From Rubricoccaceae bacterium (GTDB lineage Bacteria; Bacteroidota; Rhodothermia; Rhodothermales; Rubricoccaceae): a DNA stretch of 64,000 nt. The stretch is taken from NCBI GenBank assembly GCA_041748175.1, contig JBGTDU010000152.1:1465-65464 (forward strand), given 5' to 3'. Position numbers and translations under genes: made by a program. This document shows positions 39,927 through 43,539 of this stretch, piece by piece (within the stretch, counting starts at the first letter, position 1; the number at the start of each line of letters is the position of its first letter). Below the pieces are notes generated by a model. That model searched no databases. It was not told the origin of the DNA and saw nothing but the letters and a program-made list of their open reading frames with translations.

Positions 39927-40070
39927 TCACGCCTCCCCACCCTCCGCCATCACGGCTCCATTCGTCGCCGCGGCCTCTTCCGGTGAGACGTCCGTCGTAA
40001 GACTAACCCCGCCGCCGGGTGCAGTCTCAATCAGCACCGTGTCGCCGTCGCGGACGAAACCGGCGAGGAT
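39927..40070 (-). pseudogene. Detached, diverged copy of the clpB 3' end (last ~47 codons plus stop)
   Basis: Aligns without gaps to 40870-41013, with about 18 mismatches in 144 nt by hand count. Encodes [47 protein letters not shown], compared with the ClpB end [47 protein letters not shown]. The tracked 62-aa ORF 39927-40115 contains it. Confidence 0.85.
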
Positions 40071-40114
40071 TCTATCGTATGCTGGGACCGCGTCTCTGAT
40101 TTGGGGTGGAGCCA

Positions 40115-40501
40115 TTAGCTATTCAAGAGGTTGTTTACAAGTTTGACTAAGGCTACAACTTCGGCAGTAAGCCGAGCCCGGTTTTCTAGCACCGCACCGG
40201 CCCCAAGCGCTTCGTAGCGAAAGTTGACCGCGAAGGCATTGAGCCGGACTAGTGATCGAAACGACTTAGCGTCTGAACCCGCGTCTTCCAGAAGACCGAG
40301 CAAAACATTAAGATCGTGCGTGCGGGGATACGCAATGTGTTGAAACGACAACCATGCTTTGAGCGCTTTCTCAACGGCTTGCTGAGCATGGAACCCCGCG
40401 ATCTCATCCGCGAACGAATCCTCATCGTCCATCGCAATCAGCGCTCGGAGATCCCGATTTGCAGCCTCCAGCAGTGCGATTGCATGGGCGCGGTCGCTCA
40501 T
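40115..40501 (-). CDS. HEPN domain protein (putative toxin of a MNT-HEPN pair)
   Basis: 128 aa and all-helical. Has FHAQQAVEKALKA and YPRTHDL blocks typical of the HEPN (PF05168-like) family. 4-nt overlap with the upstream nucleotidyltransferase gene. Confidence 0.8.
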   Translation of the reverse strand: MSDRAHAIALLEAANRDLRALIAMDDEDSFADEIAGFHAQQAVEKALKAWLSFQHIAYPRTHDLNVLLGLLEDAGSDAKSFRSLVRLNAFAVNFRYEALGAGAVLENRARLTAEVVALVKLVNNLLNS

Positions 40502-40839
40502 GCCAGCGCGCGATCGTACATAACCTTCCCCTCTCTCATGGCCCGCGCGACAACGTGATTTGTGGTTGCAGACCAGCGTTTCACCTCATCGGTTGTGTAG
40601 ACCAACAAGTCTGTCGGCGTCCGGAAAGGGGCCAGCACTTTCCATAGGCGCGTCATTTCTTTCAACCGCGCGCGTTCGTCACGAAAAGGACCATCCTCGA
40701 CAATCAGGAAATCCACGTCTGAGTCGTCTTTAGCACTACCCGTGGCCTGAGAGCCAAATAACACGATGCAACGTGGGCTTGACGCCGCGACGAGCGCGTC
40801 CGTCATCGCCTGGATTTTGTCTGAATGTCCTGGTTCCAT
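40498..40839 (-). CDS. Minimal nucleotidyltransferase (MNT) domain protein (putative antitoxin of a MNT-HEPN pair)
   Basis: IVLFGSQATGSAKDDSDVDFLIV is the pol-beta NTase G-S ... DxD signature. 113 aa. Gene order MNT then HEPN, with an ATGA-type overlap. Confidence 0.82.
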   Translation of the reverse strand: MEPGHSDKIQAMTDALVAASSPRCIVLFGSQATGSAKDDSDVDFLIVEDGPFRDERARLKEMTRLWKVLAPFRTPTDLLVYTTDEVKRWSATTNHVVARAMREGKVMYDRALA

Positions 40840-40869
40840 CGGAATACTCGGAATTACCGAAATATAGAC

Positions 40870-43539
40870 CTACGCCTCCCCACCCTTAGCCATCATCGCT
40901 CCATTCATCTCCGCGGCCTCTTCCGGTGAGACCTCCGTCGTCAGCGTAACGCCGCCGCCGGTTGCAGCGTCGATGAGCACCGTGTCGCCGTCGCGGACGA
41001 AACCGGCGAGGATCTGCTCGGCGAGTTTGTTGGCGATACTGCGCTGAAGCACGCGCTTGAGGGGGCGCGCGCCGAAGACCGGGTCGAAGCCTTCCGTTGC
41101 CAGCGAGTCCTTCGCGGCGTCGGAGAGGACGAGTTTCAGGCCGTGATTCTTCTCCGCCATCTTGCGGATGAGCTCGAACTGGATTTCCACGATGCGGCGG
41201 ATCTGGTCGCGGCCAAGCGGCCGGAAGACGACGATCTCGTCGATCCGGTTGATGAACTCGGGCCGGAGGTCTTCCTTGAGCCGGTTGTTGAGGTCGCGCG
41301 TCAGGCCTTCCATCTCTGTTTCGGAGAGTTGGCCGTCCTCGGCGATGTTCATCCTGCGCTTGATGAGATCGGACCCCAGGTTGCTCGTCATGATGATGAT
41401 CGTGTTCGTGAAGTCGACCGTGCGGCCCTTCGAATCGGTCAGGCGGCCATCGTCGAGGACTTGCAAGAGCACGTTGAAAACTTCGGGGTGGGCCTTTTCA
41501 AATTCGTCCAGCAAGACCACCGCGTACGGCCGACGGCGGACGGCTTCAGTGAGTTGCCCACCTTCGTCGTACCCGACATATCCCGGAGGCGCGCCAATCA
41601 GCCGCGACACCGTGTGGCGCTCCTGGTACTCGCTCATGTCGATGCGAACGACGGCGTGCTCGTCGTCGAACAACTGCTCGGCGAGGGCCTTGGCGAGTTC
41701 GGTTTTGCCGACGCCCGTCGTACCAAGGAAGATGAACGATCCAAGCGGACGACTTGCCTCCTGCAAACCTGCACGTGCACGTCGGACGGCTTGGGAAACA
41801 GCCTCGACCGCCTCGCGCTGGCCGACCACGCGCTGTTCGAGCGCGGATTCCATGTCGAGCAATCGCTCCTTCTCGGTCTCCAGCATCTTGGTGACGGGGA
41901 TGCCCGTTGAGCGCGAAACCACGCCCGCGATGTCCTCGGCGTCCACTTCCTCTTTCAGCATCGCGCCGTTCTTCTGGACCTCGATGAGCTTCGCCATGAA
42001 CTCCTCGATCTCCGTTTCGAGCTGCGGAATCTGGCCGTAGCGGATCTCGGCCACCTTGCCAAACTCGCCCTGACGCTCCAGATCGGCCGCTTTCGTCTTG
42101 AAGGCGTCGATGGCAACGCGCCGCTCCTTGATGTTCTGGACGAGATCGCGCTCCTGCTCCCAGCGGGCCTGCAAACGGTCACGCTCCTCTTCGAGGTCGG
42201 CCAGTTGCTTGGTGATTTCTTCCTCCTGCTTCGTATCACCCTCGCGCTTGACGGCCTCGCGGGCGATCTCCTGCTGCGTGATCACGCGGTTGACGGCGTC
42301 CAGCTCTTCGGGCATCGAGTCGATTTCGATGCGCAAGCGCGACGCGGCCTCGTCGATCAGGTCGATGGCTTTGTCGGGCAGGAAACGGTTGGTGACGTAG
42401 CGGTCGGACAACTCGGCTGCCGCTACGATGGCGCCGTCCGTGATGCGCACGCCGTGGTGGACTTCGTAGCGGTCCTTGATGCCGCGAAGAATCGCAATCG
42501 TGTCTTCCACAGATGGCTCGGCGACGAGCACCATCTGGAAGCGCCGCTCGAGCGCCTTGTCCTTCTCGAAGTACTTCTGGTACTCGTCCAGCGTCGTCGC
42601 GCCGATGGCCCGGAGTTCGCCGCGAGCGAGGGCAGGCTTTAGGATGTTGGCCGCATCCATCGCACCTTCCGCCGCGCCCGCCCCGACCAGCGTGTGGATC
42701 TCGTCAATGAAGAGGATGATCTCGCCTTCTGCATCGATTACATCCTTGACAACGGCTTTGAGGCGGTCCTCGAACTCGCCCCGGTACTTCGCGCCGGCGA
42801 TCAACGCGCCCATGTCGAGTGCCAGAACGCGCTTGCTCTTGATACCCTCAGGCACGTCTCCCTGAACGATGCGGATGGCCAGGCCTTCGGCGATGGCCGT
42901 CTTGCCCACCCCCGGCTCCCCGACGAGAACCGGGTTGTTCTTCGTCCGGCGACTCAGAATCTGGAGCACGCGGCGAATCTCCTCATCCCGCCCAATAACC
43001 GGGTCGATCTTGCCTTTTCGGGCGAGTTCATTGAGGTCTCGAGCGTAACGGTTGAGGGCGTCGTACTTGCTCTCTGCGTACGGGTCCATCACATTCTGGC
43101 CGCCGCGAAGGTCTTTCAGAATTCCCAGAATCCGCGCCTTGGTGACGTCCTGTTGGTTTAGCGCCTCGGCAACGGCGTCCTTCGCCTCAGCCATCGCAAT
43201 CGCGAGGTGTTCGGTCGCTACGTATTCGTCGCCGAGATTCTCAGCCTCCTTGAGCGCCTGGTCGAACACCGTGTTCAATTCGTTGCCGACGTACTGGCCT
43301 GTGACGGATGCTCCGCTGACTTTGGGCAGCTTCGCCAGCGCTTCGTCGGTCTTTGTGGTGATGTACTCGATGTTGGCTCCGAGTCGCTGAAGGATGGTTG
43401 TTACGAGACCGCCCTCCTCCTGAAGAAAGGCTTTCATCACGTGCGGCGTTTCGATGCCCTGATGGGTGTTGCTTTGGGCGATCTCCATCGCTGCCTGAAC
43501 GGCCTCTTGCGCCTTGACGGTAAACTTCTGGAGGTTCAT
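40870..43539 (-). CDS. clpB: ATP-dependent chaperone ClpB
   Basis: Start at the ATG at 43539 ([15 protein letters not shown]...). Clp_N repeats, Walker A motifs [10 protein letters not shown] and [12 protein letters not shown], a long coiled-coil M domain, and [10 protein letters not shown] at the C-terminal D2-small domain. Confidence 0.95.

Follow-up and report, generated by a model that had tools for sequence, protein, structure and literature searches.

A duplicated clpB 3′ end marks the recombinational insertion of an integrase-less MNT–HEPN cassette in a Rubricoccaceae bacterium

Toxin-antitoxin and defense modules are widely assumed to be mobile, and the route is rarely visible for those that lack a mobility gene. 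A direct repeat of the 3′ end of a target gene, with the gene restored by an element-borne copy, is the classic footprint of integrase islands, and cis-mobilizable elements (CIMEs) are integrative elements that have retained their att sites and lost the integrase, their tandem accretion giving arrays separated by att sites. Orphan toxin-immunity modules downstream of rhs, cdiA and mafB form arrays in which a fragment with homology to the 3′ region of the main gene stands ahead of each module. Here we describe a short direct repeat of the end of the chaperone gene clpB that brackets a gene pair encoding a minimal nucleotidyltransferase (MNT) and a HEPN-domain protein in contig JBGTDU010000152.1 of a Rubricoccaceae bacterium; the whole 64-kb stretch of this contig that was analyzed is referred to as the window. 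The closest precedent that we found is the insertion of restriction-modification complexes with long target duplication (Nobusato et al. 2000, as cited in PMC2853133). Such complexes are small addiction modules that lack mobility genes and lie between direct repeats of 46–423 bp; the repeats are single-copy in empty genomes and sometimes overlap the 3′ end of a gene, and the complexes have been proposed to insert, to amplify by way of the repeats and to be released again (Furuta, Abe & Kobayashi 2010, PMC2853133). Sedentary chromosomal integrons include toxin-antitoxin cassettes (for example PMC13108822), and the minimal mobile elements of Neisseria are cassettes that lie between conserved genes and are exchanged through transformation and homologous recombination (PMC1797815, PMC3787668). 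Full-text searches of the open-access literature yielded no account of toxin-antitoxin cassettes that lie at clpB or bipA and carry a tail of these genes.

In the window, clpB, the repeat and the gene pair all lie on the minus strand. The clpB gene (40870–43536), the host gene whose 3′ end we consider to be the recombination target, comprises 888 codons from the ATG at 43536 and encodes the Pfam domains Clp_N, AAA, AAA_lid_9, AAA_2 and ClpB_D2-small; the nearest ClpB proteins belong to uncultured Rubricoccaceae/Rhodothermales (P0001, from a metagenome-assembled genome (MAG), 90% identity; P0002, 89%). A direct-repeat scan of the window returned 39929–40070 and 40872–41013 (142 nt, 89%, spacing 943). 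Base-by-base comparison on the minus strand aligns the detached copy A (39927–40070) with the clpB-attached copy B (40870–41013) over 144 nt without gaps, with exactly 18 mismatches (87.5% identity) where the first-pass annotation of this locus had counted about 18, and the first 38 nt are indeed identical (40033–40070 and 40976–41013). The exact identical blocks between the copies measure 38, 22 and 15 nt. The similarity ends sharply upstream of 40070/41013 and, on the other side, directly past stop codons at equivalent positions, TGA in copy A and TAG in copy B. Both copies are in frame, as had also been noted from the sequence, and 16 codons differ, nine of them changing the amino acid and seven not (the stop codon counted among the seven). 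Copy A sits within a 62-codon open reading frame (ORF; 40115→39927) that begins with an ATG overlapping the stop codon of HEPN (TAATG); protein look-ups gave no exact match to this 62-aa product or to ClpB. When a copy was compared with the 64-kb window by BLASTN, the other copy was the sole match (E=2e-46) and the remaining hits all had E>0.06, which rules out chance or the merely compositional similarity that might be suspected in such DNA. No further tail-type repeats were found in the window: the one of 249 nt at 14142/14916 is a domain repeat within a single ORF, and that at 46891/47839 reflects ABC ATPase paralogs.

The two copies enclose a compact pair of genes, whose initial assignment is confirmed by Pfam. 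MNT (40498–40839, 113 aa), a putative antitoxin, matches NTP_transf_2 (E=6e-9) and Polbeta, carries the GSx10DxD motif FGSQATGSAKDDSDVD (defining pattern GSx(9–10)DxD) and matches the minimal nucleotidyltransferases 9xbd and 1wot in the PDB. The HEPN-domain protein (40115–40501, 128 aa; HEPN PF05168, E=1.5e-15), a putative toxin, starts in overlap with the MNT stop codon (ATGA); the canonical RNase motif R-x(4–6)-H is not evident in it, and RTHDL is strictly conserved in the window and in two related loci introduced below, L054 and L058. The motif, the Pfam families and the gene overlap fit a putative toxin-antitoxin module. Between the TAG of copy B and the MNT start lies a 30-nt leader (40840–40869; GGTCTATATTTCGGTAATTCC...), which is conserved in a further relative, L057, as GGTCTATATTTCAGTGTTCCC... 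upstream of MNT. On the other side, a 45-nt spacer (40071–40115; MAPPQIRDAVPAYDR), whose ATG overlaps the HEPN stop, is a 5′ remnant of a DUF2442-like gene.

Native reference tails were taken from three loci, L003 and L004 (the contigs of P0001 and P0002) and L008 (MAG Rubricoccaceae Ww533, with the closer tail). Each has one clpB tail and no MNT–HEPN pair, and they represent the empty clpB 3′ flanks that an insertion would lead one to expect in relatives. The 18 sites at which copies A and B differ were scored against these three tails. At repeat positions 38–80, the native tails agree with B at eight sites and with A at two, whereas at positions 103–143, a stretch that takes in the stop codon, they match A at six sites and B at none, with two ties (8:2 versus 0:6; Fisher p=0.007). 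The native protein tails (P0001–P0005, L008) correspondingly combine the first half of B with the second half of A and end in ...EEAAATNGxVMAEGGEA. The question of which copy is closer to the clpB of relatives has, accordingly, a divided answer, B being closer proximally and A distally, and each copy changes between native-like and foreign-like sequence within the interval from repeat position 80 to position 103. Judged from this mosaic, the two copies are reciprocal chimeras: B appears native-like proximally (40933–41013) and cassette-type distally (40870–40910, including TAG), and A appears cassette-type proximally (39990–40070), with a distal part (39927–39967, including TGA) that corresponds to the ancestral native clpB end. 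The distal half of B carries six derived states, which include four amino-acid changes and the altered stop codon. The crossover would map to the central 22-nt identical block GTCTCACCGGAAGAGGCCGCGG, at 40911–40932 in copy B and 39968–39989 in copy A; two switches within one such block are expected from a single reciprocal crossover between a cassette tail and a single resident tail.

The first-pass annotation had regarded the copies as two alleles of one gene end, one of them imported, and had placed the crossover in the identical 38-mer. A foreign version of the clpB end did come in, but each copy is chimeric and neither is purely imported, so that a native copy A beside an imported copy B gives way to the reciprocal chimeras. 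The 38-mer does not mark the crossover either, since the switch lies at repeat positions 81–102 and the 38-mer is equally conserved among independent clpB genes: native genes differ from copy B at 1–3 of its 38 sites, compared with 19–24 of the remaining 106. What stands is the core of that proposal, in which a cassette of about 0.94 kb inserted together with its own version of the clpB 3′ end, since the chimeras and the empty, single-tailed relatives agree with it; the repeat is the scar of a recombinational insertion.

The same mosaic bears on the possibility that the repeat is a true long target duplication, in which staggered breaks and fill-in would make both copies start as exact resident tails and diverge later. 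The setting resembles the restriction-modification cases, as a selfish addiction module would have inserted without mobility genes, and an insert below 20 kb, repeats above 30 bp and a single copy in the empty genomes (L003, L004, L008) agree with the criteria of PMC2853133. Such an event predicts, however, that the attached, selected copy is native and the detached copy decaying, whereas the distal half of B is the derived one and the distal half of A is ancestral; moreover, the distal states of B are shared with the cassette-preceding tails of L057, and the reciprocal chimerism (p=0.007) contradicts an origin of both repeats from the resident target. We regard this explanation as very improbable.

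Comparison with related loci indicates that the cassette is not a one-off: on the gene orders found, it is a member of a recurring, array-forming family without integrase that has bipA as a second target. In L054 (metagenome contig SMVA01142939.1), clpB is followed by an MNT–HEPN pair (75% protein identity to that of the window) and a second clpB tail (87% over 150 nt). Compared with the window, the tail homology begins some 39 nt farther upstream, and the second tail has a 1-nt frameshift and is without a 24-nt insert present in the attached copy; the crossover would have to fall in the last ~27 nt of the tail, as opposed to mid-tail in the window. The L054 clpB is 92% identical at the nucleotide level to that of the empty L003, its closest sequenced relative among the fetched loci. 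In L057 (Logan SRR22387989; MNT 88% identical), the order is clpB tail 1, DUF4160–DUF2442, tail 2, MNT–HEPN, tail 3, which places other cargo at the clpB end. No exact block common to the L057 tails exceeds 19 nt, so the array is not an assembly ambiguity at k=31. The MNT–HEPN cassette is thus first in the array of the window and second in that of L057, where the boundary of tail 2 lies about 20 nt further in than the tail start of the window.

In the window and in L057, a tail with a cassette behind it has ATGAAYGG (Met-Asn-Gly; ATG-AAT-GG in copy B) and a TAG stop, whereas terminal and native tails have ACGAA and TGA instead. The junction on the HEPN side also corresponds, being YDR/ILAGF in the window and QDR/ILSGL in L057 (the slash marks the junction). 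The cassette-type distal states, the leader and this matching junction in L057 argue that the cassette takes both halves of its own tail along.

The second target was found in L058, a 4.4-Mb Rubrivirga contig, where a 68%-identical MNT and a HEPN gene follow bipA/typA. The bipA end (7802–7874) is repeated directly after HEPN (8718–8790, 96%), and another copy lies between the bipA stop and MNT (7892–7951). The same architecture on the tail of another gene argues for homology over a sequence-specific site. In order along the contig, the first two of the three copies of the bipA 3′ end (7802–7874 and 7892–7951) adjoin with no cargo between them, and a motif, ACCTTCGGCC, precedes copy 2 and recurs just before the MNT start; this arrangement suggests that an earlier cassette was deleted and left its leader behind.

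The DUF2442-like spacer links the two kinds of cargo. The start of this gene is truncated after 15, 16 or 51 codons in the window, L054 and L060, respectively, and fused in frame to the clpB tail. The L054 post-HEPN spacer MMLPPGIVEAAPKSES (L054:2469–2516) encodes the same N-terminus as the window spacer, and in L060 HEPN is followed by 51 codons of the DUF2442-like gene (MLPPRIVEAVPKPES..., L060:290–442), joined to the clpB tail at ...YFWQ/ILAGF. In L057 the gene is intact and forms a separate cassette with DUF4160. Judging by these fusions, MNT–HEPN and DUF4160–DUF2442 cassettes have evidently recombined with each other. We also considered whether the overlap between an ATG and the HEPN stop, seen in four instances, points to a functional third gene for a ClpB-tail peptide. 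This candidate was set aside, as the frame is a DUF2442 remnant and is frameshifted in L054; the conserved overlap follows from shared descent from the DUF2442 gene start.

A decayed relative, L059, consists of a detached 110-codon clpB fragment, MNT, a frameshifted HEPN gene and a 31-nt tail remnant (L059:7377–8741). The protein of the detached fragment is identical to the C-terminus of the full-length ClpB P0022, which is encoded elsewhere on the same 3.67-Mb contig, and the clpB body seems to have become separated from its old locus; insertion sequence genes (DDE_Tnp_1, DUF4096) lie nearby, and the downstream DUF294/CBS and MurJ genes are syntenic with the window. Relatives of MNT with 73–74% identity (P0123 and P0124 clusters) occur on at least 14 more short metagenome contigs, many of 760–1070 nt, which is about the size expected where assemblies break at flanking tail repeats. 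The contigs of one of these MNT relatives, P0160, and of a detached-tail ORF, P0152, are both 5294 nt long. Two further loci, L047 and L048, lie on one 26-kb Anaerolineales contig (JAWOHN010000060.1) with clpB matches in opposite orientation and mirror-image coordinates, an arrangement suggestive of a palindromic (foldback) artefact of the assembly.

The window has 47 greedy ORFs, of which 43 were scanned, the other four being longer than 800 aa. None of the 43 matched a family of integrases, transposases or other recombinases, which agrees with the first-pass annotation, and no such family appears in the precomputed annotations around L003 and L058 (8–10 kb). The window contains no detected tRNA or tmRNA and no match to an Rfam family, so no known RNA was found as a target. 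The clpB and bipA tails, folded as single-stranded DNA on both strands, gave z-scores of −1.1 to +0.4 against shuffled sequences. As the tails fold no better than shuffles, an attC-like site is unlikely, and an integron was rejected on this ground together with the lack of IntI, the upstream position being occupied by clpB.

Cassette-preceding clpB tails and bipA tails have the terminal 9 nt, GAGGCGTAG (Glu-Ala-stop), in common (window 40870–40878; L058:7866–7877 and 8779–8790; L057:322–333). The Rubricoccaceae-like ClpB proteins inspected end in -EA, with one exception in -QA. The shared end may be a coincidence, a microhomology that aids movement between arrays, or a recognized site.

These observations allow another explanation to be weighed, namely that the locus is a CIME-like mini-element whose tails are the attL and attR of a tyrosine or serine integrase encoded elsewhere, possibly on an element targeting the clpB 3′ end, with arrays built by site-specific accretion. 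The direct repeats include the 3′ end of the target gene in the window, L054, L057 and L058, as in integrase islands; the arrays of L057 and L058, with att-like copies between units, resemble accretion; the homology stops exactly at the stop codon in every case; and the clpB and bipA tails share their last 9 nt. A site-specific enzyme is harder to reconcile with homologous cassettes on two unrelated tails, with a proximal boundary that varies (by the ~39 nt in L054 and the ~20 nt in L057 tail 2 given above) and with a crossover that lies mid-tail in one locus and in the last ~27 nt in another, although the instances are few. Beyond the last 9 nt, no conserved leader or core motif is present, and the recombinase is missing from the intervals listed above. 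A CIME-like origin therefore appears unlikely to us.

To follow the history of the cassette, identity at four-fold sites was compared between cassette and host genes. Between the window and L054 it is 0.57 for clpB (n=254), 0.30 for MNT and 0.31 for HEPN; between the window and L057 it is 0.77–0.83 for clpB and 0.52–0.54 for the cassette genes. Strong codon bias in clpB is a caveat on this comparison, and DUF4440 was used as a host-gene control; comparison of the window with L003, which is related to L054 but empty, gave 0.61. The cassette genes are more diverged than the host genes at these sites, which argues that the cassettes are older than the host split and were not simply co-inherited.

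This result weakens a further alternative, an old and immobile vertical locus, in which an ancestral insertion was kept in some lineages and lost from others by recombination between the repeats, and in which the chimerism arose by local excision and re-insertion or by unequal tail exchange in a once longer array. The cassette is confined to Rubricoccaceae-like lineages, with a second clpB tail in 0 of 48 clpB loci from other phyla; its genes are deeply diverged (69–85% nucleotide identity); decayed copies exist, as seen in the frameshifted terminal tail of L054 and the frameshifted HEPN of L059; and deletion of the first cassette of an L057-like array by recombination between tails 1 and 2 would also yield a hybrid copy B. 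Against such a history stand the excess of synonymous divergence in the cassette over the flanking host genes, the presence of the same cassette at different array positions and of a relative behind another gene, and a circularly permuted contig described below; in addition, both breakpoints fall in one 22-nt interval, for which two separate events would need a coincidence. We consider a purely vertical origin rather doubtful, and slightly less plausible than a CIME-like one.

Logan contigs from two runs (SRR28170472 and SRR28170461) contain the exact MNT of the window. In SRR28170472, the unitig L001 breaks inside the 38-mer on both sides; together with L005, which runs from tail A into the 302-aa gene downstream, it gives the pattern expected of the integrated form. 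In SRR28170461, the 953-nt contig L002 joins 40387→40071 to 41013→40378 at 100% identity and presents the 943-bp unit in circularly permuted form, its two ends overlapping by 10 nt; the records from this run include neither the 302-aa nor the DUF4440 gene. L002 is suggestive only, and would fit a free circle, a tandem amplification or an over-representation of the cassette relative to its flanks. A 1087-nt unit had no match among the phages and plasmids of INPHARED and PLSDB, and no MNT relatives were found in IMG/VR.

Taken together, the chimeras, the varying tail lengths, the two unrelated targets, the arrays and the lack of a recombinase fit host recombination better than a site-specific enzyme. 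We hypothesize, with a probability of roughly 55%, that a cassette equipped with its own gene tail integrates and excises by Campbell-type homologous recombination. The 943-bp unit would be an integrase-less toxin-antitoxin cassette that bears its own version of the final ~144 nt of clpB, in the circular order distal clpB tail with TAG, 30-nt leader, MNT, HEPN, 45-nt DUF2442 remnant and proximal clpB tail. It would enter a single-tailed clpB end through one reciprocal crossover between the cassette tail and the resident tail, either by Campbell-type integration of a circle or, equivalently, by ends-in integration of a linear piece cut within the homology. A crossover inside the central 22-nt identical block would give the two reciprocal chimeras and leave clpB intact, with its C-terminal 14 codons and stop derived from the cassette. 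The host's general homologous recombination would most likely act on tails that are 80–96% identical, and the same repeats would permit excision and array building. An addiction module would also put cells at a selective disadvantage once recombination between the repeats had removed the cassette.

Several points weigh against this hypothesis. A dependence on RecA is presumed, and the lengths of the exact blocks (38, 22 and 15 nt) lie close to or under the minimum at which RecA of E. coli works efficiently. The outgroup tails are only 78–83% identical, and some site polarizations could be homoplasy. The comparative loci are all metagenome contigs or MAGs, and no conspecific empty site was found for the lineage of the window itself. 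The circular signal of L002 is ambiguous, because its junction falls within the exact repeat, whose 38 nt exceed the Logan k=31, so that such a path exists in the graph of the integrated form too, and the contig is 20 k-mers short of a closed cycle. Homologous integration also does not account for the first capture of a tail or the move from a clpB-anchored to a bipA-anchored state, and the common GAGGCGTAG terminus of both tails is a possible hint of a recognized site.

With regard to expression, neither a sigma-70-like promoter nor an intrinsic terminator was detected from clpB to the 302-aa gene. As only 30 nt separate the clpB stop from MNT, the cassette, which has no recognizable promoter or terminator of its own, is likely transcribed by read-through from clpB. 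TAnnTTTG is the Bacteroidota-type −7 promoter motif, and the MNT leader (window 40840–40869; L057:1058–1088) holds TATATTTC, one base off this motif; it may give the cassette a weak promoter of its own despite the negative sigma-70 scan.

Downstream of the cassette, the region between the clpB end and a DUF4440/SnoaL-like gene (38417–38899, minus strand, Pfam-assigned) is variable. The DUF4440 gene is its conserved right-hand flank, with orthologs downstream of clpB in L003, L008 and L060. The slot contains a different single gene in each genome. In the window it is a 302-aa ORF (38945–39853, minus strand) outside the 943-bp cassette, of low GC content (46–51% versus about 60%) and with no Pfam or PADLOC match; L008 has HEPN_AbiU2 (193–888), L003 a DUF8370/8371 protein matching PADLOC PDC-M36A (12788–14221), and L060 a 372-aa ORF (674–1792). 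The slot has neither repeats nor mobility genes and, by its gene content, looks like a small defense-gene hotspot. Elsewhere in the window, a 725-aa ORF (13616–15793), apparently secreted, contains an internal 249-nt direct repeat (14142–14390 and 14916–15164, 80%) that is a tandem domain duplication and bears no relation to the clpB tails, and a 163-aa ORF divergent from clpB (43909–44400) has weak arrestin-like and Spo0M-like Pfam hits (Arrestin_C at the cutoff).

The interest of this locus lies in the readable footprint of a module without a mobility gene, comprising a diverged copy of the end of a conserved gene and reciprocal chimeras, together with the empty sites, the arrays and the second target seen in relatives. 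If the process is driven by homology, a very short conserved piece of coding DNA would suffice to mobilize a gene pair among related genomes while leaving an essential gene intact. It would also explain why addiction modules fill such sites, as only cassettes that punish their loss would persist between direct repeats, and it would extend the idea of long target duplication from restriction-modification to toxin-antitoxin modules with a concrete, testable mechanism.

Compared with restriction-modification insertions, the clpB cassette is likewise a small addiction-type module without integrase or transposase between flanking direct repeats. Its cargo is, however, a toxin-antitoxin pair; it brings its own diverged copy of the target, the repeats being reciprocal chimeras; and cassettes of this type form arrays and, in relatives, use the tails of two genes. 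With integrase islands and CIMEs it shares the element-borne 3′ end that restores the target gene, the flanking direct repeats and the arrays, and it differs in having no recombinase in cis or in the 64 kb, variable repeat boundaries, two unrelated target genes and a size of only 0.94 kb. In its behavior, the variable slot between clpB and DUF4440 is comparable to the sites of minimal mobile elements in Neisseria; such elements leave no duplication of the flanks, whereas the MNT–HEPN cassette does, carrying its own homology. The modules behind rhs, cdiA and mafB are alike in forming arrays after a main gene, with a 3′-homologous fragment that enables homologous exchange, but there the fragment leads into a new toxic C-terminus, while the clpB-type tail is an ordinary chaperone or GTPase end and the toxin-antitoxin operon is separate.

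The resemblance to integron arrays extends to cassettes of one or two genes and about 1 kb without a recognizable promoter, ordered arrays with a repeat of ~70–190 nt after each cassette, toxin-antitoxin cargo that possibly stabilizes the array, a possible circular form and likely expression from an upstream promoter. Here, in contrast, there is no IntI, no attI, no R′/R″ cores and no attC-like fold; the repeats are the coding 3′ ends of clpB and bipA, and the array is anchored on a housekeeping gene. We tentatively raise the possibility, which we hold to be less probable than homologous integration itself, of a recombinase-free analogue of the integron in Rubricoccaceae-like bacteria, in which housekeeping 3′ ends (clpB, bipA) would serve as sites and small circular MNT–HEPN and DUF4160–DUF2442 cassettes, each with a copy of the tail, would be captured, arrayed, shuffled and released by homologous recombination and expressed by read-through.

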